A stretch of DNA of 64,000 nucleotides from a virus. Under the pieces are notes generated by a model that was not told the DNA's origin, searched no databases, and saw only the letters and a program-made list of their open reading frames with translations. The stretch lies in the IMG/VR virus record IMGVR_UViG_3300010397_000003, positions 1-64,000 of that record. The stretch is one strand, 5' to 3'. The position numbers and the translations under genes were made by a program. Each line of letters starts with the position of its first letter. Position 1 is the stretch's first letter. This document shows positions 4,338-64,000 of the stretch, piece by piece.

Positions 4338-5321
4338 TTACGCCGCTACGGGTTTGGCTCTGTAATCCTCAGTCGGAGGTTTGATCGTGATCTTCGGCAT
4401 TGGCTTGTCTGTGCGCACCCATTCGGACACTCGGCCGCCGCGGGCCTGATCTGGTTTCCACTGTTGAGGCTGCTTGATGAAATAGCCGTCAGTTTGAAGA
4501 TTAAGCATTACGCGGCGAACCTCTGAAACCGGAAGGAAAGTAAACTCTGACATGAGGCTGTCCGTGTTGTAGCCCTTCTCCCAGGCGTAGAGCAACGCTT
4601 CCTCTGCGGCCTCGATAAACAATCCGTCGTGGCGTTCGAGCAGTTGCACGATTATCTCCAGAATATCATCCGCACAACGGGTATCGGGACACCTCAACCG
4701 GAGGGCATCAAGCGTAGGGTGCGCGTCAAAGTGAAGCCAGTTAGCCATCGCTTTGCGCTTCTCGCCGCCTATGGACTCAACAAAAGCCTTTCGCGCCGCG
4801 CTTCGGGTTTCCTTAATTTCCTCAACCGCTTTGCGGGCATCCGCGACCGAGAAAAAAGGGTTGTCTGCTTTCTTCTGCGCAAACACCTCCAACGCTTCTT
4901 CAGCGTCGGGCGCTCGCAGGGCTTGCTCGTAAAATCCCTTCTCCGTCAGGTCTGCGAATTTCTGATCGATCAGAAATTTCCCAAGCGTGTCGATAATTTG
5001 GGCGTTACGGTAAATCGTTGAACGGCTCTGGCCCTTTAAGTACGCTTCCTTGTCAACCGCCGCGACCACGCCCACGTCATCGCCTTTGGACTCAAGGCGC
5101 TTGAACATCTCAGAATCACAAGCGCACTCGACCACCCAAGCCCATGTTCCAACCTCTCGCGCCTTGTCGCGTATCTCTTTAATCTCTTCCGGTTCAAGTT
5201 CAGGAAGGAGCAGCAGCAACGAGTCACGGGTCTGTTCGAGACTGTTTGCGCCGTGAATGATTTCGGCCAAGGCTTCAGTTACGCGGGTCTTACGTGGTTT
5301 TGGTTTTAAGGCTGCTGACAC
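4338..5321 (-). CDS. hypothetical helical protein, possible C-terminal winged helix
   Basis: 327 aa ORF, AGGAG RBS with GTG start. Confidence 0.7.
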   Translation of the reverse strand: MSAALKPKPRKTRVTEALAEIIHGANSLEQTRDSLLLLLPELEPEEIKEIRDKAREVGTWAWVVECACDSEMFKRLESKGDDVGVVAAVDKEAYLKGQSRSTIYRNAQIIDTLGKFLIDQKFADLTEKGFYEQALRAPDAEEALEVFAQKKADNPFFSVADARKAVEEIKETRSAARKAFVESIGGEKRKAMANWLHFDAHPTLDALRLRCPDTRCADDILEIIVQLLERHDGLFIEAAEEALLYAWEKGYNTDSLMSEFTFLPVSEVRRVMLNLQTDGYFIKQPQQWKPDQARGGRVSEWVRTDKPMPKITIKPPTEDYRAKPVAA

Positions 5322-5349: not shown

Positions 5350-5500
5350 ATTTCCATTAATCAACTCCCATGAACTTTCGCGGCTTACTTAATTGCGAAT
5401 TTCAGGCTGCCCTTGCGGACAATTCGAGGCTCATTCCAAGCCCGACCTTGAGCGTGTTGATAGCGGCGTTAACGTCTCTATCGTGCTCGGCTCCACAATG
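5350..5500 (-). ncRNA. putative TnpB omegaRNA (scaffold ending TTCAT plus guide)
   Basis: TnpB omegaRNAs overlap the gene 3' end; TTCGC..GCGAA stem then GTTCAT right-end-like motif; 5' boundary is a guess. Confidence 0.45.
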
Positions 5501-6454
5501 AGCACACGTCCAAAGTCTTACCTTCAAGCCTGCCCATCCGCTCGGCCCGGAAAGAGCGCCGCACGTCGAACAAGTCTTGGTGGAATTTCGTGACGGCACT
5601 TCGATGTACTCACGACCGCCTGCACGGCACTTGTACGCGAGCATAGATCGAAGCTGTCCGTGGCTACTTGATGCGACGGACTTGCCGAACTTCTTTGCGA
5701 TGTTTTTATGATTGTCTGCGCTGAAGGCGATTAACTGATTCTCGGAAACCAATCGTCGCGACAACTTGTGATTGCGATCCTTGCGCTGATTCGCAATTCG
5801 CTCGTGTAGTCTCGCAACCTGTTTGCGGTTAACGCCTCGCTGGGCCTGCGCCAATCGCAACGCGGAGGCTTCTAATTCTCGTGGGTGCGACATCTTCTCG
5901 CCTGACGATAGTGCGAGCAAATCCTTAAAGCCAGGGTCGATACCTATCTCTGAATCAGAGACGTGCGGAATCGCGTTTGGTTCCGCATCTATGAATAGAC
6001 ACAGATACCAGCCGCTTGCGCGCTTAACGATTCGGCCGCATTTGACTTTACCTTCAGGGACTTCCTGTTTGTGGTGGCGGATGCGCCCCAGAGTCGGGAT
6101 GCTTATGCGGCGATCGGGCCATCGCTTTACCGGATCGATTAGCGGAATACTGTTGAGTCGATTGCGGAATCCTTTGAGTCGCGGCCTGCGAGCAATACCC
6201 TTGAAGCATCGAGACCACGCGAGGTACGCATCGGCCAAGATCCCTTGAAGCACGTGACTTGGAATCTCCACCTTCTGGGAATGGTTCGCCAGAAGATTCT
6301 GAAAGGCTTTCGGCGTATAGAACACCCGGTCACGAGCGTCGTTCTCGATCTTTTTTACGCCCCAGTTCCACACGGCGGTTAGATGGCAAAGCCAGCGGTT
6401 AAGCTGGCGCTCTTGCCGCGGAGTGAGTTTCAGTTTTAACTGAACCTGAACCAT
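5402..6454 (-). CDS. tnpB: TnpB-family RNA-guided endonuclease (solo, no TnpA)
   Basis: N-terminal HTH, RuvC-I IGIDPG, Zn finger CSTCG..CAHCG, RuvC-III DRDVNAA; RuvC-II reads LIAFSADN, lacking the usual Glu. Confidence 0.9.
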   Translation of the reverse strand: MVQVQLKLKLTPRQERQLNRWLCHLTAVWNWGVKKIENDARDRVFYTPKAFQNLLANHSQKVEIPSHVLQGILADAYLAWSRCFKGIARRPRLKGFRNRLNSIPLIDPVKRWPDRRISIPTLGRIRHHKQEVPEGKVKCGRIVKRASGWYLCLFIDAEPNAIPHVSDSEIGIDPGFKDLLALSSGEKMSHPRELEASALRLAQAQRGVNRKQVARLHERIANQRKDRNHKLSRRLVSENQLIAFSADNHKNIAKKFGKSVASSSHGQLRSMLAYKCRAGGREYIEVPSRNSTKTCSTCGALSGPSGWAGLKVRLWTCAHCGAEHDRDVNAAINTLKVGLGMSLELSARAA

Positions 6455-10094: not shown

Positions 10095-11186
10095 TCATGC
10101 TATTTTCCGCTCTAAAACCGCTTCCATAACCTTCGCGGCGCGACTTCTCGTTTCACCGCTCGGATGCGAGTAGTAGAGGATCATCGTTCGATCCGAATGT
10201 CCGGTGATCGATTGAATCGTTGACAGGTCTGTCCCTGCCCTAAGCAAGTCCGTGGTCAACGTGTGGCGGCAATCGTGAATGATGATGCCGTCCTGATCGT
10301 TACCGTAAGGTATTCCCGCGTCGCGACAGCCGGCCGCGAGAACGCGATAGAACTTCGGGCTTGTTTGACCGCTTCGGGTGAACACGAATCGAGATTTCGT
10401 TTCTGAGGCACGACGTTCGAGAATTCGGCGCATCGCAGACGTGATCGGAACATATCGGTTCTTCGGGTTCTTCGTCTCGCGTACTTGGATATCCGTTTCG
10501 CCAATGTGCGCCCACTCAAGTTTATCTATCTCCCCGTGGCGCATTCCGGTCGCTAGAGCGAATTGAAAGAGAAGTCCCACTGTCTGCCTTGCCCTTGCGT
10601 CGGCATCAGTCTCCAGCGGTCGCCTATCACTCATAAGGCAGTCAATAATCGCCCACCGCTCCTCTTGCGTGATGTATCGCTCGCGTCTCCGGCTCTTACC
10701 TTTGGGTCTGGGTATCTTCGGCACGATCCATTGTCCCAACTGTGGATAAAGAATTCTCGCAGCGTAGAGCGCGGAACCTATCGTGTTCAATTCGCGCTTG
10801 ACTGACTCAGGACTAATCCCCACCGCGTACCGAGCGTCAACATAACGCTGAAGATCGGGCGTCGTAACCTGATCCACCGCAACGCCGCGAGGCATTAAGT
10901 CAGCCAGCCGAGTGAGCAGGGTGCGCGCTCGCGTCTTTTCCTTCTTGCTGCGGATCGTCGCGCAGCGTCTTTCGATTAATTCGAGAAACGCGGGCGCATC
11001 AACGGTCGTACGGATGCCAAACTTCTTCAGTTGTTTATCTCGCCGGATTTTATACGCCGCAGTTTCAGCGTCGGCCTGAGTCGCAAAGGTCGCTCTGATT
11101 CGCTTCCGATTCACGCGGATATCAAGCTGCCACTCGCGCTTACCGGACTTCTTATTCTTGATAGGTTTGATCACGCGGCGAATCAT
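10095..11186 (-). CDS. int: tyrosine recombinase / phage integrase
   Basis: catalytic set TGMR, K, HDCR, TGH, Y (YYSH); N-terminal arm-binding-like domain. Confidence 0.92.
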   Translation of the reverse strand: MIRRVIKPIKNKKSGKREWQLDIRVNRKRIRATFATQADAETAAYKIRRDKQLKKFGIRTTVDAPAFLELIERRCATIRSKKEKTRARTLLTRLADLMPRGVAVDQVTTPDLQRYVDARYAVGISPESVKRELNTIGSALYAARILYPQLGQWIVPKIPRPKGKSRRRERYITQEERWAIIDCLMSDRRPLETDADARARQTVGLLFQFALATGMRHGEIDKLEWAHIGETDIQVRETKNPKNRYVPITSAMRRILERRASETKSRFVFTRSGQTSPKFYRVLAAGCRDAGIPYGNDQDGIIIHDCRHTLTTDLLRAGTDLSTIQSITGHSDRTMILYYSHPSGETRSRAAKVMEAVLERKIA

Positions 11187-36137: not shown

Positions 36138-36320
36138 TCTGATCTCCTTCAGGTAAAAACAGACTGAGGGATTCCCTTCGGCATGCATGCTGTCTTATGC
36201 TCTGGGTATTGCCTTACTCGTTAGCGAAGAGAATTAACCATTAATTTCAGCGCAATTATATACTTGACATACCCAGACTGGTTTGGTAGCATGGTTTCGT
36301 TAAGGAAAGGCGCGAAACCG

Positions 36321-37346
36321 ATGAACCTAGCAGACCTAATGGAGCGATTCGCAACGGTAGAAGCTGCGAGAGAATATCTTGAGAAAGAGCGTTGGCCAGA
36401 AGGCCCGGAATGCCCGCACTGTGGGCTTGTGGGTGAAGCCTACAAGATAACTCCAAAGCCGCGCCACATACCGGACGAATACCAGACGAAGCGCGAAGTA
36501 GCTGCGCAAGCCAAACGAGTACGCAAACCGCGTCAAGGTCTCTGGAAGTGTAAAGACTGCCGTAAGCCGTTCACTGTTACCGTTGGCACTATCTTTGAAG
36601 ATTCACATATCCCGCTTAACAAGTGGGTGATCGCTGTTCATCTCATGTGCGCCAGCAAAAAAGGAATGAGTGCGCATCAGATTCACCGGATGCTCGGAGT
36701 GACTTACAAAACGGCGTGGTTTATGTGTCACCGCATCCGCTACGGAATGTCTCAAGAACCTCTGGCCTCGCAGCTTACGGGCGTTGTAGAGGCCGATGAA
36801 ACCTACGTTGGCGGTCGTCTGCGACATAAACAATCTACTCAGGTCAAACAAGGCGTGCGTGCACAGGATCGCGTTTCACCGTTTGACAATAAAGCCGCCG
36901 TCTTTTCAATCCTGCAACGTGACGGCCGCGTGCGCTCTACGCATATGGATCGCGTCACTGGCGAGAACCTGAAAGCCGCAATCAAGCAAGTCTGCGCGCC
37001 GGACGCGCATATCATCACGGACAATTATCCGGGCTACAAACGTCTCAAGAGTGAATTCAAACACTCTAGCGTCAATCACTCTGCCGGAGAATACGCACGC
37101 TGGGAAGATGGCGTCTGCATCACGACGAATTCAATCGAGGGTTTCTTTTCAATTCTCAAGCGCGGCATTAATGGAACGTATCATCACGTTTCCAAACAAC
37201 ATCTTCACCGCTATCTCTCAGAGTTTGATTTCAGATACAACGCCCGCAAGATGACTGATAGTGATCGCCGTGAAGCCGCGCTCAAGGGTTTCTCAGGCAA
37301 GCGGCTCATGCTTCACGATCCTATTGGCAAGACTGGCGAAAACTAA
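36321..37346 (+). CDS. IS1595-family (ISXO2-like) DDE transposase
   Basis: Zn ribbon CPHC..CKDC, VEADETYVGG, IITD, TNSIEGFF, RYLSEFDFRYN. Confidence 0.93.
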   Translation: MNLADLMERFATVEAAREYLEKERWPEGPECPHCGLVGEAYKITPKPRHIPDEYQTKREVAAQAKRVRKPRQGLWKCKDCRKPFTVTVGTIFEDSHIPLNKWVIAVHLMCASKKGMSAHQIHRMLGVTYKTAWFMCHRIRYGMSQEPLASQLTGVVEADETYVGGRLRHKQSTQVKQGVRAQDRVSPFDNKAAVFSILQRDGRVRSTHMDRVTGENLKAAIKQVCAPDAHIITDNYPGYKRLKSEFKHSSVNHSAGEYARWEDGVCITTNSIEGFFSILKRGINGTYHHVSKQHLHRYLSEFDFRYNARKMTDSDRREAALKGFSGKRLMLHDPIGKTGEN

Positions 37347-37366
37347 ACCAATCGACTAGGCTATAG

Positions 37367-37453
37367 TGGTGGGGACGACGGGATTTGAACCCGCATGGTC
37401 GTGAGACCGAAAGTTTCCTAGGCTTGCGCGTTTACCAATTTCGCCACGTCCCC
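37367..37453 (-). tRNA. class II (Leu-type body) tRNA with apparent AGG anticodon
   Basis: GGGGACG TG GCG AAATTGGTAAA CGC G CAAGC CTAGGAA ACTTT CGGTCTCACGACCAT GCGGG TTCAAAT CCCGT CGTCCCC A CCA. Confidence 0.85.
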
Positions 37454-38103
37454 ACTATCTCAAAAGAACTGCTACCGGCCCGGTCTTGAGTCTTTGCGGG
37501 AATTAGACCGGGCCTTAGTGTTTGTTACGGCCCTTCGCGTTTGAGCAGCAAAGCAATTTGAACGCGAGAGGCTATGTATCTAACTTCATAACACCACCTC
37601 GCACCTCGCACCTCGCATTATGTTTAGGCGAGTCTGCCAATTCCGTCAAAATGGAAAGAAAAGTTTTTTAATCTTCCAGTGGAAACTATTGGAGAATAAA
37701 TTACAGTGGAAAGAATTAGGTGGATACTTTACAGGGGGGGGGGCGTAACTTATTCGATCTTTTCCTTCCATCCCGGTTTTCCGATTCGATCCCACGTGAA
37801 ATCATAACCAAAGGTTTTCATAAGCCTTACTGCGCGATTTATCTGTTGTCTAAATTGTTCTCTACACTTCTCTGTGTGACGTTTTTTCTGACCTAGACCG
37901 CACGGGCAGAAAACGTCCGTAGCTTGCCTGAGAGTGACGGCGGGATACGCATATTTTCCGTCAAGCGCAGCAAGTGCTAAATGTCGTTTTGAAGGTGGTT
38001 GCCCGCCCTGAAGCGTTCAGGAAATCGCAACTTGTCCCCTATCTGGCCGGACAGGGTTAAGGCGCGGCGAAAGTTGTTAGCGAGAGTTTACATCAATGGT
38101 AGA

Positions 38104-38271
38104 ATGCGGGAAATGAAAGCAGAACGAAACACGAATCCTGCCGGACGTGAGGGAAGACCTATTAGCCTTCATCCGCTGAAACCACGCGATGCGATCCGTG
38201 GTCTTCTAGCTGTGAAGCCACCACCGAAAGACACTCACAAAGCAGAGAAGAAAACTAAGCGCAAAAAGTAG
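38104..38271 (+). CDS. small basic protein (IS passenger)
   Basis: PISLHPLKPRDAIRGLLAVKP; Lys-rich tail. Confidence 0.5.
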   Translation: MREMKAERNTNPAGREGRPISLHPLKPRDAIRGLLAVKPPPKDTHKAEKKTKRKK

Positions 38272-38276
38272 AACCT

Positions 38277-38503
38277 ATGACAGGTACAATACTTAGAGGC
38301 GACGCCCTAGTGATCGAAAATATTGACTAAAGAGTTGGTCGGGCGATTTTACAGCGCCACAAGCAACTCTCTTCGAGCCGGGGGAGTATTGCGATTTACA
38401 GTTGGTAGATGGTCGCGGGGGAGGCTTTTTCATTTCCAACATCCGCTTCCGAAGCGGCAGACCTATTTCGGTTGAATTTGTCGGTTCTGGTGACTTGAAG
38501 TAA
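38277..38503 (+). pseudogene. broken small ORF
   Basis: MTGTILRGDALVIENID* continues in another frame as KSWSGDF...VEFVGSGDLK*. Confidence 0.35.
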
Positions 38504-38541
38504 GTGGATTCGGGTGGCGTATAGGTGATATAAGCCGCCTT

Positions 38542-38835
38542 ATGGCGAATTACTTTATTTCTTTCGACCTGTCACCCACCGTCAACGAGAAAGAGCGACC
38601 GCCAATGGCAAAGGTCATCGCGGAAACGTTCCCGCTCAGAAGCTTCCAGTTCCTCAGCAATGGCTGGTTTATTCAAACGGATTGGCCTGCCGAAGATATT
38701 CGGCTATGGCTCTTAGGTGAGATCAGTCCTAGCTGGCGTGGCGTTGTTATTCGCATAACCGATCCGATGTTTGGGCAACCCCGCGATCCGGCTGACCTGC
38801 CCGAGTGGCTCTTGATCGAAAACAAGGATTCCTGA
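38542..38835 (+). CDS. small ferredoxin-fold-like protein (Cas2/VapD-like N-terminus)
   Basis: MANYFISFDL start motif, 97 aa. Confidence 0.45.
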   Translation: MANYFISFDLSPTVNEKERPPMAKVIAETFPLRSFQFLSNGWFIQTDWPAEDIRLWLLGEISPSWRGVVIRITDPMFGQPRDPADLPEWLLIENKDS

Positions 38836-39064
38836 TCCGCCTTGAGGCTTGGTGAGCCTTTCGTATTCCTCAAAACCCACACGCGCCATATAAGCGTTAA
38901 CCACTCGCGTGTCATCTAATAGACGACAAGGCTCACCGTTGAAAGAAACCACCGTCCCTTTCGGGATAATAGCTATCTTATCGACATCGTTTCCATCCAC
39001 TTGCCACCTTTACTTTCATTCAGGATTTATCGACCTGTCACGCCCTCTGATTGTAGTGGGTATG

Positions 39065-39382
39065 TCATGTATATAATCCCGCCGCTGACTGTTGAGCTTG
39101 CCGTCTGCGAGCTTGAGCGCCGCCTAAGCGTAGACAGGAAACCCGCCAAGAAATAAGCGTTGCGTGAAGTGGGCTTTCCCGCGGAGCGTCTAACGTACCG
39201 CCTGCCCAGCCAATCCAATACATTACCACTACCACAAGAATCGTGATCAGCGCTGGAATAATGACGTACCTGAGAGACTCGGCTATTCCTTTCCGTCTCA
39301 GTAATCTATTCAAACACCAGAGAAGAGTTCCGCCAATCACCAGAAATAGAAGAGCCGAAAGGGCGAGTGCTGGAAATGACAT
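39065..39382 (-). CDS. two-TM membrane protein running into the IS end
   Basis: two hydrophobic helices; stop codon lies within TIR. Confidence 0.45.
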   Translation of the reverse strand: MSFPALALSALLFLVIGGTLLWCLNRLLRRKGIAESLRYVIIPALITILVVVVMYWIGWAGGTLDAPRESPLHATLISWRVSCLRLGGAQARRRQAQQSAAGLYT

Positions 39383-58202: not shown

Positions 58203-61200
58203 CTATGTTCGGAACGCTTCACTTCCAGCCTTGAACGGATTGCGCGGCGGTAGCCAGGGTTTCAATAACGATTGTGACGCACCGGACGGAACTGGAAATG
58301 TTTGTTTCTGCTTCTTAAACTTTTGCGGACGAGGGGTTGCATCGTAAGCCGCCTGCCCTTCTTTTTCCGCCGCAGTCTTTACCTGTTTCAGTCTTTCAAT
58401 CTTATTTTCATCCGAGTCTTTCTGGTATTCAGGGTTTGCTACTTCTTTTTCAAGTGCGCGGCGGATATAGCCATTAACGAGCGGTTGGCGCTCGGCAAAT
58501 TCTTTCCGTGTTTCATCGGGATGCCTTTGCGCGCCCCGAAGCGGCATGCCAAGTCGTTCAATTTCCTTGCGAGAGCCGGGTCTGTCCGAGCCGTAGATAT
58601 CCGACGCCGGGCCTGACGGGAAATCCTCACGCACGCGAATGCCTGTTGCTGCGACCGCGCCAATGGGAACTGACTTCGCGAGCGCCCCGGCGTTGCTGGC
58701 ACCCTTCTCGCGCTCCGCATAATACGTTCGAGCGGCCTCCGCTAAAGGAATGGGCGTTTGGGTGCTCCAAACATATTCCGGCCAAGTGTATCGAGGAGAC
58801 TTGATCGTGCCTTCCTCTTTAGAAAACGGTAGTGGGCGTCCGCCATAGTCCGACTGCAACCAAATGTCCGCACCAGTCCCAAACAGAGGTGATAATTTAG
58901 AGCGGCCGTACTTAAATGTAGTCGTTGCCGCATCACCGATCTTCTCGCGCGGCTTTTTACTTTCCAATCCGATGTTCACTAAGTTGCCTACAAACCTCAC
59001 GGCGGTAAGCAGTCCACCCGCCGGGCTGATGACGTGTCCAGCAACCTTGAAAGCCAAGAAGTCCGACTTGGTAGGATCGGTTACATTGATCTTATCGTCA
59101 CTGCCCGATGCTGTCAGCAGTCCTTGATTCGCAGCCAAGAGCGCACCGTAAGTCGCGACTAATTGCGCGTTGCGGCTCGCTACTCGCTTTGCCATGTAAC
59201 GCTCTTCAGGTTTGGCGTTCTTCCAATTAGAAAATGCCTTGATCGCGCGATAATTGTCCCGCACAAGAAAATCCCACCGTGAGGCTTCCAATGGCGCGGC
59301 GAACATCGCCTTTCCGACAAATCGACTTGGCCAATCTTGACCGCTAAGAGCTTTCGACGATCCCGTGGAAGCATTGATTTCTTGCGCCAGAGCTCTTGCG
59401 GTTTCAGGGCTCTTCAGATCGCTGGTCATCTTATTCCATGCGCTATCGAACATATCCTGTCGCATGGTCTTGAGTGAATCGAAAGCGCGATTACCAGAAA
59501 CGCCTATCTTACCAAGCACCTTAGCCATCCACGGACTTTGATATTCGTCATATCCTCGTTTCGGATCGTTCGCCAGTCCGGCGCGTTGGGCCGTGATGTA
59601 GTTCGAGGAAGTTTCAAGATCAGACATTGCTCGTTCATGTCCACCCTTGCTGACCATGAACTGATAGGTACGTCCAAAGTTACGCCAAAAGTCCGCCCAC
59701 CTCGCGGGAATGAAAGCATTCGCCGGAGCGTGAGTAAATGGAGCAACCGCACCGTGACCCATCGTGGCTTTGATGAACCATAAACGACGAGCGTCCTCAA
59801 ACGCCTTAACCGCCAAAGGCGCATCGGCCTGTTTTATCCAACTCTCGGCATTAGAGCGAAGACGACGACGATCACTCATCTTCGCCCAGATTTCGTTGCT
59901 GAGTTGCTTCGCGGCTTTCGTGTTGGCCAAGGATCGCGTAACCACGTCAGGCGCAATCCCGAGGTCGCTTGCTACTTTTGCCCTGATCTCTGCGAAGTTA
60001 TTATTTCCCTTATCAACGTAATTCTCCCTTGCGTACCTCCATACCGCGCTGGCGTCTTCAGAAGAAATTGGCCCACGTTGTAGCCGCTTGCCTAGTTCTC
60101 GCTGCGCGGCTTCCGCATCCACGGCTTTTAATGTTGCCGCAACGCCCTTTTTCGTTTTTGCCCACTCGCTCTCAACTTTCTGCCCTTTGGGTGCGCCTTG
60201 ACCAAGAATCGCCTCAGCAACTTCTCGCTTGGTAACATCCGCGAAATCCTTAATTGCTCCGTGCACGTCATCAATGAGTTGGGCCGCGTCCGTTATGCCC
60301 GCCTTCGCGCGGTTCTTAGCGAGAGCGATGACCTGTTTAGTGATCTCACCTTCAGGGTCGATGCGCGCAAGTCCTGACGGCTGAATACCCGATCGGTCGC
60401 GCACCTTTTGAAAAGCCGCCGCAAGGTTCTGCTTGATAACTACGGCCTCATCATCAAGGCTCTTTCGCGTCTGCTGCCTTCCCGCGCGTCTGGACTCGCG
60501 GGCTTGATCGATGAAGCGAGATAGCGACTTCTGGACTTCATCAGGCAGGTCTTTAATTCCCGCTGCGCGATCCAGCTCCGCCGCTAATTGACTGCTGAGA
60601 TTCTTAACCTGTGAATCAACCGAAGCGTTACGATCCGCAAAGCGGTTCATTACTACCACTTCTCGCGGCGATGGTTCACGTCCTTTAGAGTCTTTGAACG
60701 CTCGATACATTCCATAGAATGTTCCTGTGTCAATGTCCGTCTCGCCCTGCTGCGCACGGCCAGTGTTGCTCCAAGCGGTCTGCATTGGCTTAACGGCATT
60801 GTCATAAAAGTCTTGCCGGACTTTCTCTGCGGCGCGGAATTCAGGACTGTCAAGTTTCCGCCTGCCGACATCAAATGCACGATTGGCCGCTTGAGCAAGT
60901 TCTTCGTGACGAGCGCGCACTAAAGCCATCGCATCGGCAGAAATCGCCCCTGATTTATCAAAGGCATCTATTGTGTCCTTTAGGTTGCCTTCGCGAAGTA
61001 GTTGACGGCCTCGCTCAACAGATTCTTGCGCACCGATAGCCTGACCACGCGACGGCTCTTCGCCTCTTGCGGCGGTTTCTACGCGATGCGCGATACCTGT
61101 CGTCTCGGCCGGAGATTGTTCCATGCCGGGGATATCAGTTTGGCGTTTAGCTGTTTGCTCACCGCCGGATATTTGCGCCCAAACCTTTCCTAAATGCTCA

Positions 61201-64000
61201 TCTGCCTTCGGCCCAAACTCTTCTCTGAGTTTCCGCGACCATTCTTCAAATGTAGGCTTAATCTTTTGATCGTAGAGTTCCCATCCACGAACAATTAGTG
61301 AGTCAATAAACTCGTAAGGGTCGGCTCCGGCATGTCGGTATTCAATGCCTTGCTGTTTTTCCGCGAGCCGATTGGCGGCACGCTCTCTGGCCGCACGAAC
61401 GACGGATGGTTCCGCTTGTGCTGTCTCAGTAGTTGGCGGATTTTCTGCACGTGAACCGGATTCGGATTGAACCCCTTCACCCGAAAATAAGTCAGGTTGT
61501 TTCTTGGCATCGTCTAACGTCTCCCTTAATGCTGCATCGAAAAATGATTCTTTAGTCGGATTCTCTCTGCCGAAGAAGGCTTGTTGCTTTGGACTGCCGG
61601 CGGCTTCAACAGCCTTCGCGTAATTGTCGAGCACGGAACTGATCGCTCTACCGCTTCGCTTGAAGCCCTCAAAGGTCTTAAGAATCTGTTTCTGAAGCGG
61701 CGTGAGATCGTCGCCAAACAGTCCGCGTTGGTTCAGATAGTCAGCGACCGCCTGCCCTTGTTCACGCAATGACGACATTTTCGCAAGCGACTTTGTTAGG
61801 TCGCTGGTGATGTCTACAGGATAGCGCTCACCTTTTTCGATTCCGTCTTTGAGAGAAGCAAACTGTCCCGCACGCTGCAACAGTGCCGTTGAAATCGCAC
61901 GGACGTTATTGTCAGGTGACTCAGCAATCTTCTCCAAGGCACGCAACCCTTCAGGTGAGTCACCGTAGGCGCGAGCAAAGATCGCGTTCCGAATTCGGGT
62001 CAGTCCATCTTGCGATATTTCACCGTCTGATGAAACGTATCGACCAAGATCGTTTGGGCCGACCACGTCTCTCATGAACGCACGAACAAACGGAGTGTTT
62101 GCTGTTGTGTTGATCTCGCCAGACTCCGAAGGCTTAAAAATAGCCAGATGCTCACTCGTTAATTGTCTGGCATCGCTCTTAGCTTGCTCTGGCGCAGACA
62201 TCGCAGCCAACGAAGACTCATTGGCTTCGCGAGCAAACTGTTCTCGATTCACATCCGAGGTTCGTAATCGAACCAAGACAGGCTCTTTGGCCGCTTCAAT
62301 GGATTTCGGATCGATCCCAAAGTTTTCCGCGTTGTCCAAAAGGTATTGTCGATAGTTGTCCGCATTGTCTTTTGCGTAAGCTCGGCGTAGTCCAATAGTG
62401 CGAGCGTTGCCCGACTCGACAATCCCATCCGGCCCGACGATTGGCGCACCATCGCTTGCTTTGGGTGATTGGGACAGGAGTTCGCCGCGAGGGTTCTTTT
62501 CAATCTTTTGAATTTGAACTTCGCCGGCTTGTCGGCTGCGATCCCTCGGCTGTAGTTCTTCTGGAAAGACAGGGTTGCGATTCAAAAGATCGTCGTGAGA
62601 AGTAATCAAGTCCTTCGCATCAACAATCGCGAGCTTCGTATCCACTTCCGTGCCACGCTCGGTGATTGCTTTAGATGTCGCGCCTTCTGATAGCGTGCGA
62701 ATTGGTGTCAAGGGTTCACGAACTAGCGCGGGACGCGCAGACGAACCTTTGGGTTCAGGGCTACTTGGAACACCCGCGGCTTCAGCAATAGGAGTTGTAG
62801 ATGCTTTAGTCTCTGGTTGAGGGGAGCGAGACTGTCTTACGATATTGGCTCTAATTTGATCTGTTAAGTCCGCCTGCTCAGTCTCAACCTGTCGCTGAAT
62901 AGCTGGATCGAAATGGCGTAGACCCTCATCTGTGATTTCTACATCACCAATGCGCCCGTAGCCCAAAGCTTTAAGTTTAGAGGCAGACTGCGAGATAACT
63001 TGATCACTCAACCCCATATCAGCCAGCAGATCAACTACGTCCTGTCCCGTGGGATTTTCGGGGAGTTCGCCGTAGATGTCTGGGCCAACTGTTTGATTGA
63101 AGGTGCGATTGATGGCGCGTAAGGCGTCAGTTGGAATTGGTCTATCTAAATCAATCGACTTACCTTGCACGGCGAGCGCTTGAGACGGCTTCCCTTCACC
63201 TACAGATACTCCACCCTCAACTTTGGGGGTCTCTGGCTGAGGGGAGACTTGAATCGTCAACGCAGGGTTCTGGGGATCGCGCCACGTGGTCGGATGCCGC
63301 GTGAACTCGGAATCATCAATAAAGATTCGCCCGTCACGCCCTCGTCCTGTTTTTGGTTTCCATGAATAAGCCAATCCCGACGCGGCCTGATAAATTTCTG
63401 CTTCACCCCTTGGTGTAACAATCGTATCGCCAGCTTTGAATCCGTTCTTTTTGAGGTGTGACTTCAGCGACTCATCTGAAATGGATTGCGCTTTGAAAGT
63501 GCGCACGTCAGATGGATCGCGCTGCGTGTAGCCTAAGTCCGTTGCCTCTTGACGAGAAACGGGCTGTTTCCCTTCAGGTACAGGTACTCCACCCTCAGAA
63601 GGTGCGGCGGGAGTCGATTGTTCTGCGGGTACTGGCGGGTTTACTTGCGCGAGTCTTTCTTCTCTCTGAGCGCGAGTTTCAGATTTGAATTGACCTTTGC
63701 CGTCTCCGCGCTGACGACGTGGTTGAAGATCTACATGGCGCGGAATATCGGCTCGAACGTTGCCGAGTTGTGCTTCTGGCTGTAGCGCACCAACTTGAAC
63801 CCGAGAAACGTCAGCCGTGGCCTCGGGAACGGATCGCGGCTCCGCGCTCTCAGGTTGCGCTGTGATATTCGGCTGCGTTTCAGTTTGTGTCGCATCTCTT
63901 GCTCCTAATTCGGTTAGACCTTCCGACTTTGCGCCACCGCCAAGAATTGCTCCTAATCCGCCTTGAACGGCAGCATCCAATAAGGCGTCAAGCATTGCCT
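58203..64000 (-). CDS. giant polyvalent/ejection protein with ddrB-like ParB domain (5' truncated)
   Basis: >1930 aa; ITSHD..NP.FP.ELQPRDR..DGAPIV..VESGNART motif. Confidence 0.8.
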   Translation of the reverse strand, partial: AMLDALLDAAVQGGLGAILGGGAKSEGLTELGARDATQTETQPNITAQPESAEPRSVPEATADVSRVQVGALQPEAQLGNVRADIPRHVDLQPRRQRGDGKGQFKSETRAQREERLAQVNPPVPAEQSTPAAPSEGGVPVPEGKQPVSRQEATDLGYTQRDPSDVRTFKAQSISDESLKSHLKKNGFKAGDTIVTPRGEAEIYQAASGLAYSWKPKTGRGRDGRIFIDDSEFTRHPTTWRDPQNPALTIQVSPQPETPKVEGGVSVGEGKPSQALAVQGKSIDLDRPIPTDALRAINRTFNQTVGPDIYGELPENPTGQDVVDLLADMGLSDQVISQSASKLKALGYGRIGDVEITDEGLRHFDPAIQRQVETEQADLTDQIRANIVRQSRSPQPETKASTTPIAEAAGVPSSPEPKGSSARPALVREPLTPIRTLSEGATSKAITERGTEVDTKLAIVDAKDLITSHDDLLNRNPVFPEELQPRDRSRQAGEVQIQKIEKNPRGELLSQSPKASDGAPIVGPDGIVESGNARTIGLRRAYAKDNADNYRQYLLDNAENFGIDPKSIEAAKEPVLVRLRTSDVNREQFAREANESSLAAMSAPEQAKSDARQLTSEHLAIFKPSESGEINTTANTPFVRAFMRDVVGPNDLGRYVSSDGEISQDGLTRIRNAIFARAYGDSPEGLRALEKIAESPDNNVRAISTALLQRAGQFASLKDGIEKGERYPVDITSDLTKSLAKMSSLREQGQAVADYLNQRGLFGDDLTPLQKQILKTFEGFKRSGRAISSVLDNYAKAVEAAGSPKQQAFFGRENPTKESFFDAALRETLDDAKKQPDLFSGEGVQSESGSRAENPPTTETAQAEPSVVRAARERAANRLAEKQQGIEYRHAGADPYEFIDSLIVRGWELYDQKIKPTFEEWSRKLREEFGPKADEHLGKVWAQISGGEQTAKRQTDIPGMEQSPAETTGIAHRVETAARGEEPSRGQAIGAQESVERGRQLLREGNLKDTIDAFDKSGAISADAMALVRARHEELAQAANRAFDVGRRKLDSPEFRAAEKVRQDFYDNAVKPMQTAWSNTGRAQQGETDIDTGTFYGMYRAFKDSKGREPSPREVVVMNRFADRNASVDSQVKNLSSQLAAELDRAAGIKDLPDEVQKSLSRFIDQARESRRAGRQQTRKSLDDEAVVIKQNLAAAFQKVRDRSGIQPSGLARIDPEGEITKQVIALAKNRAKAGITDAAQLIDDVHGAIKDFADVTKREVAEAILGQGAPKGQKVESEWAKTKKGVAATLKAVDAEAAQRELGKRLQRGPISSEDASAVWRYARENYVDKGNNNFAEIRAKVASDLGIAPDVVTRSLANTKAAKQLSNEIWAKMSDRRRLRSNAESWIKQADAPLAVKAFEDARRLWFIKATMGHGAVAPFTHAPANAFIPARWADFWRNFGRTYQFMVSKGGHERAMSDLETSSNYITAQRAGLANDPKRGYDEYQSPWMAKVLGKIGVSGNRAFDSLKTMRQDMFDSAWNKMTSDLKSPETARALAQEINASTGSSKALSGQDWPSRFVGKAMFAAPLEASRWDFLVRDNYRAIKAFSNWKNAKPEERYMAKRVASRNAQLVATYGALLAANQGLLTASGSDDKINVTDPTKSDFLAFKVAGHVISPAGGLLTAVRFVGNLVNIGLESKKPREKIGDAATTTFKYGRSKLSPLFGTGADIWLQSDYGGRPLPFSKEEGTIKSPRYTWPEYVWSTQTPIPLAEAARTYYAEREKGASNAGALAKSVPIGAVAATGIRVREDFPSGPASDIYGSDRPGSRKEIERLGMPLRGAQRHPDETRKEFAERQPLVNGYIRRALEKEVANPEYQKDSDENKIERLKQVKTAAEKEGQAAYDATPRPQKFKKQKQTFPVPSGASQSLLKPWLPPRNPFKAGSEAFRT

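Follow-up and report, generated by a model that had tools for sequence, protein, structure and literature searches.

The only tRNA gene of the window, by which we mean the whole 64,000-nucleotide stretch analysed here (positions 1 to 64,000 of the virus record IMGVR_UViG_3300010397_000003), is cargo of an IS1595-family transposon inserted in a 77-kb temperate soil phage. Comparison with related elements indicated that its proline-type anticodon covaries with designated codons of the transposon across distant lineages, and it is very probable that the tRNA is a functional cargo coupled to those codons. The full reading that we favor, to which we assign a probability of roughly 55% on comparative grounds, is that leucine is loaded onto this tRNA, which then reads designated proline codons in the transposon's own genes.

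The tRNA gene was located as follows.

37367 to 37453, minus strand: tRNA, class II, with a leucine-type body and an AGG anticodon (ARAGORN; Rfam tRNA; family covariation; isotype test against host tRNAs)

ARAGORN called this gene as Pro(AGG), with the anticodon at tRNA position 35 (window positions 37417-37419, CCT on the plus strand), and called no other tRNA either in the 64-kb window or in the entire record of 77,298 bases. The Rfam tRNA family (RF00005) matched positions 37370-37453 of the minus strand with 52.6 bits against a gathering score of 29. Direct reading of the gene recovered each structural detail that the original prediction had listed, namely the 7-bp acceptor stem (GGGGACG/CGUCCCC) followed by A73 and an encoded CCA, a leucine-like D arm (3-bp stem GCG/CGC, loop AAAUUGGUAAA), a 4-bp variable stem (GGUC/GACC), and a normal T arm (GCGGG-UUCAAAU-CCCGU). 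The gene thus has the cloverleaf, the 7-bp acceptor stem and the long variable arm of a class II tRNA, in the 7/5 acceptor/T-stem geometry and with A73. The anticodon arm, CAAGC-CUAGGAA-ACUUU, likewise had the predicted C-U-AGG-A-A loop and the predicted mismatches at 27:43 (C27.U43) and 31:39 (C31.A39), leaving three Watson-Crick pairs. Thermodynamic folding of the single sequence did not recover the cloverleaf. In the reads of the probable source run, the word depth was 70 across the whole element with zero differences, so that a read error in the tRNA is unlikely.

The surroundings of the gene were those of an insertion sequence, whose main parts are given below.

36250 to 36275, plus strand: left terminal inverted repeat, core ATTATATACTTGACATACCCA (inverted match to 39057-39077; motif shared with relatives)
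36291 to 37346, plus strand: IS1595/ISXO2-type DDE transposase, 351 aa, intact (Pfam; invariant DDE columns; AF2 model)
39057 to 39082, minus strand: right terminal inverted repeat (3 mismatches in 26 bp against the left repeat)

The transposase matched the Pfam families DDE_Tnp_IS1595 (1.4e-38) and Zn_ribbon_IS1595 (2.3e-10) and has the invariant D169, D244 and E283 columns of the alignment. A 21-nt core, ATTATATAC(T/A)TGACATACCCA, lies at 36255-36275 and in inverted orientation at 39057-39077, and forms with its flanks a 26-bp inverted repeat. The element therefore combines the catalytic domain, the N-terminal zinc ribbon and the terminal inverted repeats by which the IS1595 family and its transporter insertion sequences are recognized. 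The same repeat motif delimits units of 2-4 kb around transposase homologues in ten loci from unrelated genomes (among them L009, L010, L012-L015, L047, L053 and L060), any tRNA of these units lies inside the repeats, and the tRNA-bearing units bounded by the motif come from relatives in at least five phyla. Since the tRNA of the window also lies within the inverted repeats, with its 3' end 20 nt from the stop codon of the convergent transposase gene, we regard it as cargo of the 2.8-kb transposon at 36250-39082 and not as an ordinary phage gene. An 8-bp target-site duplication was not found, as the flanks of the window element, TAATTTCA and CGCTGACT, differ.

The record that carries the transposon is a single-contig virus record, and its integrase, tail fibres, NinG-like nuclease and TnpB pointed to a temperate phage. 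Three of its genes are listed here.

5402 to 6454, minus strand: TnpB/IS605 OrfB-type gene of the phage
10095 to 11186, minus strand: tyrosine integrase of the phage
58203 to 63995, minus strand: 1930-aa phage protein, matching only PHROGs of unknown function

Open reading frames of up to 1930 aa are open in the phage under table 11, the standard code. A search of the phage collection by DNA and protein gave no close relative of this phage, its phrog_8970 protein had matches of less than 48% identity only, and neither an exact-pattern scan of viral contigs for the window tRNA with a free anticodon arm nor a peptide-pattern search for the neighbouring gene returned anything.

Relatives of the element were collected as 160 loci from a genome scan with the transposase and from a metagenome scan. 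The closest genomic relative, found in a Pyrinomonadaceae metagenome-assembled genome (MAG), has a transposase of 78% amino acid identity and a convergent class II AGG tRNA located 10 nt past the end of the transposase reading frame, and all relatives at 73-92% identity carry a convergent class II AGG tRNA as well. In total, 14 elements with an AGG tRNA were compiled (the window, L096-L105, L009, L117 and L047, the last on a separate branch with a transposase only 46% identical), and in 14/14 the tRNA was convergent with the transposase, usually within about 20 nt of its stop codon. Among the tRNA-bearing elements as a whole, the distance was larger (250-700 nt) in L010, L047, L103 and L167. 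ARAGORN called the AGG tRNA in L097-L100, L103, L105 and L117, and missed those seen on reading the DNA at L096:2915-2998, L101:4536-4619, L102:2344-2427 and L104:1199-1282, because of a weak anticodon stem in which 2/5 pairs form. The anticodon arm is identical in these four elements although their acceptor stems differ, which suggests that the arm is conserved rather than decaying. In L103, the acceptor stem of the window tRNA and its loop CUAGGAA occur on a perfect anticodon stem (caaga/tcttg). More distant elements have class II tRNAs with a UGG anticodon (L011, L115, L041, L149, L167, L010 and L112), while the UGG tRNA of L039 is a short type I tRNA of 78 nt, and some members of the tRNA family lack the encoded CCA. 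Thus, AGG was found to be kept in homologues, as 14/14 of the compiled elements carry it and more distant relatives carry UGG, and no tRNA homologue from the transposons has the UAG loop that would have marked the window copy as a one-off mutant or a read error.

The comparison also bore on how the loop should be read. Perfect 5-bp anticodon stems with 7-nt loops in L103, L009, L011 and others ruled out a shifted register or a 9-nt loop, either of which might have yielded UAG for leucine or a quadruplet reading of CCUA, and the UGG members contain no leucine anticodon.

Concerning the body of the tRNA, an alignment of 20 family members had 96.3% of its cells paired, with compensatory changes on both sides in 19/23 pairs, and no shuffled or slid structure came near this pairing. 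Judged by this covariation, the family is evidently under selection as a tRNA. G1-C72, U8, A14, A15, U48 and A73 were invariant in the 20 members. These are elements used by the LeuRS of Escherichia coli, which does not read the anticodon and whose identity set comprises A73, A14, the A15-U48 Levitt pair, the placement of G18G19, a 3-bp D stem and a long variable arm. The transposon tRNAs have this leucine body with its identity elements, and the first 21 nt at the 5' end of the window tRNA are identical to several tRNA-Leu(UAG) genes.

In an isotype test, a covariance model (R1) built from transposon tRNAs only was searched against the Pyrinomonadaceae MAG. The transposon's own tRNA in that genome scored 84.5 bits and the five host tRNA-Leu 77-82 bits, followed by the host tRNA-Tyr (56.5 bits), tRNA-Pro(GGG) (46.6 bits) and tRNA-Ser (46 bits). 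The model therefore scored the body as tRNA-Leu while the anticodon is of the proline type. By decoding, the family does not belong to tRNA-Leu, whose anticodons are NAG or YAA, as the window tRNA has AGG and its relatives AGG or UGG; nor is it of the tRNA-Pro class, for G35, G36 and A73 are present but on a class II body with G1-C72. The tRNA-Pro(GGG) and tRNA-Pro(UGG) of the MAG are both class I with C1-G72. These comparisons argue that the tRNA derives from tRNA-Leu and keeps the features used by bacterial LeuRS.

A codon-aware alignment of 147 transposases was then set against the anticodons, and two columns stood out.

36759 to 36761, plus strand: designated codon 1, CCT, Pro157 in QE-P-L (codon alignment; model)
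37320 to 37322, plus strand: designated codon 2, CCT, Pro344 in HD-P-IGK (codon alignment; model), 7 residues after the invariant K337

CCT was present at both columns in 14/14 AGG elements, including L047, L100 and L105. In the UGG elements (L011, L115, L041, L149, L167, L010, L112 and L039), both columns had CCA, with site 1 of L167 (CCC) as the sole exception. L010 and L112 provided a prediction from the codons alone: no class II tRNA had been called in either, their CCA/CCA pair led us to expect UGG tRNAs, and the covariance model then found one in each. Such constancy was rare elsewhere in the gene. Among ten AGG elements, 4/58 shared columns of four- or sixfold degenerate residues keep a single codon, and two of these four are the designated sites; among six UGG-type lineages, 2/44 such columns keep one codon, and they are exactly the two designated sites, with CCA. 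In tRNA-less relatives, site 1 is proline in many cases, with CCG or other codons in sister branches, and site 2 in tRNA-less sister branches is Ser (TCN), Thr or Ala, not leucine. The AGG evidence represents about two independent lineages and the UGG evidence about five, and all of these statistics are given without formal phylogenetic correction.

The use of other proline codons pointed in the same direction. The transposases of the ten-member AGG clade have no CCC among 141 proline codons, and of their 26 CCT codons 20 are at the two designated sites, whereas the other four-fold families of the same genes have 40-77% NNY. At three conserved proline columns, the AGG elements have CCG 27 times, CCA twice and CCY never, as against 44% CCY in tRNA-less relatives (Fisher p = 3e-7, uncorrected for phylogeny). 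This avoidance suggests that reading by the tRNA is harmful at ordinary proline positions, and thus fits a cargo other than proline. In the UGG elements, there was no CCA at conserved proline columns, where the numbers are very small, and no clear avoidance of CCA or CCG at other positions. The phage's own genes use CCT (21%) and CCC (18%) freely, from which we conclude that the phage is not adapted to the tRNA, and an efficient leucine-inserting tRNA would damage its proteins.

A sister lineage repeats the coupling of anticodon and codon at two fixed columns, there with leucine codons. Its tRNAs are class II with G73 and very long variable arms (L128:5573-5686, L121:2368-2450 and L124:2951-3036). 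In L128, L129 and L131, the anticodon is AAG and the transposase has only two CTT codons, located at columns 188 and 195, and in L121 and L124 the anticodon is UAG and CTA stands at columns 188 and 195.

The remaining cargo of the window element lies between the tRNA and the right end.

37474 to 37513, strand not assigned: GC-rich hairpin, 10 bp, GGCCCGGTCT...AGACCGGGCC (read from the sequence)
37999 to 38070, plus strand: structured non-coding block of about 72 nt, upstream of a small gene (nucleotide conservation; RNAalifold)
38113 to 38271, plus strand: small second gene, 52 aa, MKAERNTNPAGREGRPISLHPLKPRD... (tblastn, at least 15 related elements)

The small gene has CCT at its P9 (38137-38139) and P16 (38158-38160) codons. 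These N-P-AG and R-P-IS codons are CCT in 7/7 AGG elements, and CCA at both positions in L010 and at one of the two in L112. An extended -10-like sequence, TGGTAGAAT, precedes the gene, which also occurs in the tRNA-less relatives L106, L108, L110 and L118. The 52-aa protein gave no match to a Pfam family; its C-terminus is basic, and it possibly regulates transposition. The block upstream is 90-98% identical at the nucleotide level to those of L096, L117, L099 and L097, whereas the transposases of these elements differ by 13-23%; it contains in-frame stops in L096 and L117, and RNAalifold predicted an 11-bp closing helix with two compensated pairs, so that it may represent a structured RNA or a protein-binding palindrome. 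The hairpin lies about 20 nt upstream of the 5' end of the tRNA and is followed on the tRNA strand by a T-rich run; viewed on the plus strand, it comes after the transposase gene and the tRNA in antisense. L096, L104, L101 and L009 have equivalent hairpins. We infer that it is a terminator or a leader, and it could be a bidirectional terminator that makes the tRNA dependent on read-through.

Taken as a mechanism, the favored reading would run as follows. LeuRS, ignoring the anticodon, would charge the tRNA with leucine, and the AGG anticodon, cognate to CCU, would compete with the host tRNA-Pro(GGG) and tRNA-Pro(UGG) at the designated codons. CCU is kept at sites that are probably tolerant in structure, two in the transposase (the Pro157 linker and the Pro344 tail) and two in the 52-aa protein, and the element's own tRNA would determine how much of each protein is made as the proline and how much as the leucine isoform. 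Such programmed missense recoding would tune or gate, that is limit, transposition by a logic like that of the low-efficiency frameshifts of IS1 and IS3. Expression of the tRNA, its leucine charging, its decoding on the ribosome and the effect on transposition are all inferred.

The AF2 model of the window transposase (pLDDT 83.6) was in agreement with tolerant sites, as it placed residue 157 in a predicted coil that joins the final helix of the DNA-binding part (139-152) to the strand with which the catalytic core opens (165-173), and residue 344 at the predicted start of a disordered C-terminal tail. Relatives vary at the equivalent residues. Since the positions lie in a linker and a tail and vary in this way, either residue is likely to be tolerated, which fits ambiguous decoding; by the same token, the amino acid change may be functionally neutral. 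The proline found at site 1 and the Ser, Thr or Ala found at site 2 in tRNA-less relatives do not indicate that leucine is the required residue. The weak anticodon stem of the window copy and its closest relatives (2-3 pairs) may lower the efficiency of decoding, and G35, G36 and A73 are also identity elements of prolyl-tRNA synthetase (ProRS), so that charging with proline or with both amino acids is possible. Other modes of reading at the designated codons fared poorly: +1 frameshifting was rejected since the neighbouring nucleotides are not conserved, and extended pairing of the loop with the mRNA, for which 5 bp are possible at site 2 of the window, is not conserved in members with a UCAGGGG loop.

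The original prediction had offered a missense tRNA inserting leucine at CCU, a frameshift-prone tRNA, a decoy for an anticodon nuclease, and a decaying tRNA-Leu(UAG) as possible explanations. Of these, only the missense tRNA, with a leucine-type body reading CCU, fits the comparative evidence, and it has gained much ground from the conservation of AGG or UGG, from the leucine score of the body and from the avoidance of CCY at ordinary transposase prolines. The frameshift-prone tRNA found no support, with 7-nt loops and no conservation of a slippery context; the decoy found none either, as the tRNA belongs to a transposon residing mostly in bacterial genomes; and the compensatory changes in every arm of the family spoke against decay.

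The main rival to leucine insertion, which we consider unlikely, is that the tRNA, for all its unusual class II body, truly accepts proline, being charged by ProRS via G35, G36 and A73 and serving as a dedicated decoder of CCU. The protein would then be unchanged, and the level of the element's tRNA would set pausing or speed at a domain boundary and near the C-terminus, as with bldA. The invariance of G35, G36 and A73, the frequent G37 of the family and the proline found at site 1 in many tRNA-less relatives agree with such a decoder, as does the location of the sites, one directly behind the DNA-binding domain and the other shortly ahead of the C-terminus, where pausing could affect folding or cis binding. 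The leucine-type body does not, given that the tRNA-Pro of the host is class I with C1-G72; moreover, tRNA-Pro(GGG) and tRNA-Pro(UGG) of the host already read CCU, and proline charging gives no reason for the avoidance of CCY at conserved prolines. We judge it improbable that the product is a tRNA-like RNA working outside decoding, whether by pairing with mRNA triplets in the manner of a T-box specifier, by antisense action on or processing of the transposase transcript, or as a cofactor of transposition. The gene is convergent and usually about 20 nt from the stop codon, so that the 3' UTR of the transposase would be fully complementary to it, a conserved hairpin adjoins it, and some members have no encoded CCA, all of which would suit such an RNA. 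However, the matched triplets are always in-frame codons at fixed residues of two different genes, pairing outside the three anticodon bases is not conserved, and mRNA pairing alone would not need the full cloverleaf with LeuRS identity features that has been kept.

Two further explanations carry very little weight. Phages are known to carry accessory tRNAs that supplement poorly read codons or counter anticodon nucleases, and this is the sole tRNA of the phage genome; it is nevertheless very improbable that it supplements a codon or replaces or decoys a tRNA cut by such a nuclease, because the gene is enclosed in a transposon with relatives mainly in bacterial chromosomes, the likely host relative has normal tRNA-Pro(GGG) and tRNA-Pro(UGG), and a leucine-type body cannot stand in for tRNA-Pro. 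Hardly credible is the decay of a tRNA-Leu(UAG) into a pseudogene, or an error of assembly or reads, which the two anticodon-stem mismatches and the UAGG of the loop, where a shift of one base gives UAG, might have suggested. AGG is common to the homologues, of which L103 has this very loop on a perfect stem, the weak arm recurs unchanged in four other elements with different acceptor stems, compensatory changes are found in all arms, and the source run shows no differences at depth 70.

Full-text literature searches returned no description of IS1595-borne leucine-type tRNAs with proline anticodons. Several known systems nonetheless resemble parts of the proposed one. The suppressor tRNAs of crAss-like and Lak phages read recoded stop codons, many of them in late genes, and are essential for full-length proteins; there, as proposed here, a tRNA of a mobile element changes the reading of particular codons in its own genes. 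Unlike those systems, the transposon tRNA would act on a sense codon at only two places per gene, it belongs to an insertion sequence, and the host phage uses the standard code; with its AGG anticodon and with phage reading frames open under table 11, it is not a suppressor of a stop-recoded phage. The bldA tRNA-Leu(UAA) of Streptomyces is a correctly matched tRNA that reads TTA, which no other tRNA reads. The proposed system would similarly have one tRNA gating genes with a particular codon at few positions, but here the codon can be read by host tRNAs, and identity and anticodon of the tRNA disagree.

The mistranslation pair tRNAProX/ProRSx, which Schuntermann et al. are said to have described in 2023 from Streptomyces and relatives, reportedly consists of chromosomal tRNAs with proline identity and non-proline anticodons and a dedicated synthetase paralogue. 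It is likewise a natural bacterial case of mismatch between anticodon and identity, one that leads to deliberate mistranslation, whereas the present tRNA has a leucine-type body with a proline anticodon, is borne by a transposon without a synthetase, and is matched to codons within the genes of that transposon. For neither the phage suppressor tRNAs nor tRNAProX do we know of an anticodon linked to specific codons of a neighbouring transposase. Transporter insertion sequences (tIS) of the IS1595 family, reportedly treated by Siguier, Gagnevin and Chandler in 2009, are said to carry passenger genes. The window element shares with them the IS1595 DDE transposase, the zinc ribbon, the terminal inverted repeats and the passengers between transposase and right end; it departs from them in its tRNA passenger and in that no 8-bp target duplication is visible at the window copy. 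To our knowledge, described tIS passengers are protein genes, and a tRNA passenger coevolving with the transposase coding sequence has not been described.

A further near parallel is provided by the allo-tRNAs and irregular tRNA polycistrons known from Acidobacteria and from soil metagenomes, which are of serine identity with an acceptor/T-stem geometry of 8/4 or 9/3, occur near transposon-related and toxin-antitoxin genes, and have been proposed to be missense or nonsense suppressors (Mukai et al., 2017; PMC5389517). The transposon tRNAs resemble allo-tRNAs in being soil-bacterial, in probably taking their identity from a synthetase that ignores the anticodon, and in their non-matching anticodons; being canonical 7/5 and leucine-type, they are not allo-tRNAs. 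As in the irregular tRNA polycistrons, L010, L115 and L132 carry two irregular tRNAs in tandem, whereas the allo-tRNA paper (PMC5389517) reports no anticodon that is linked, as is seen here, to specific codons in a gene next to it.

Sense-codon reassignment is usually attributed to genomes in their entirety, and tRNAs that naturally mistranslate are regarded as rare oddities; the present case concerns a small mobile element. That the anticodon follows specific codons of the element's genes, even between distant lineages, is what a comparison should show where decoding is real, and if the tRNA inserts leucine, it would represent a new route of self-regulation for mobile DNA as well as a cause of Pro-to-Leu mistranslation throughout the proteome, transferable between bacteria and phages. 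A more far-reaching version, which we put forward tentatively and at somewhat less than even odds, is that this family of insertion sequences runs a private genetic code, in which a leucine-charged tRNA with a proline (or other) anticodon matches codons in the transposase and regulator genes and the leucine isoforms control transposition. If so, those isoforms would be made only by ribosomes supplied with the element's tRNA, and this would be programmed sense-codon recoding by a mobile element, spread over at least five bacterial phyla and into phages. With one tRNA, one transposase and one 52-aa protein, the system is small and directly testable, and the family offers natural tRNA scaffolds for code engineering. 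In annotation, such genes are labelled tRNA-Pro by their anticodon or missed, as ARAGORN missed those of four close relatives.

Some further features of the related elements may be recorded. Tandem pairs of irregular tRNAs within related transposons were located at L010:4104-4287, L115:1132-1287 and L132:2161-2346, and comprise, for example, a class II UGG tRNA with a class I UUG tRNA (loop CCUUGAC), or GAU with GCC, both on class II bodies. The transposase of L010 contains exactly two CAA codons. Other irregular tRNAs, in L012 (CGC), L132 (GAU and GCC), L041 (GCU) and L060 (GCU), gave no clear pattern of matched codons. L053 carries at 4376-4461 a leucine-type tRNA with the anticodon UUA, that of an ochre suppressor, and its transposase has a TAA exactly at designated site 2, read-through of which would add about 56 residues; as a case of codon coupling, this match was judged suggestive but weak, since the natural ends of the relatives are no more than one or two codons away. 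Finally, in the window itself, the cargo region between the tRNA and the small gene contains three tandem copies of ACCTCGC and a run of nine G (37594-37616 and 37733-37743).
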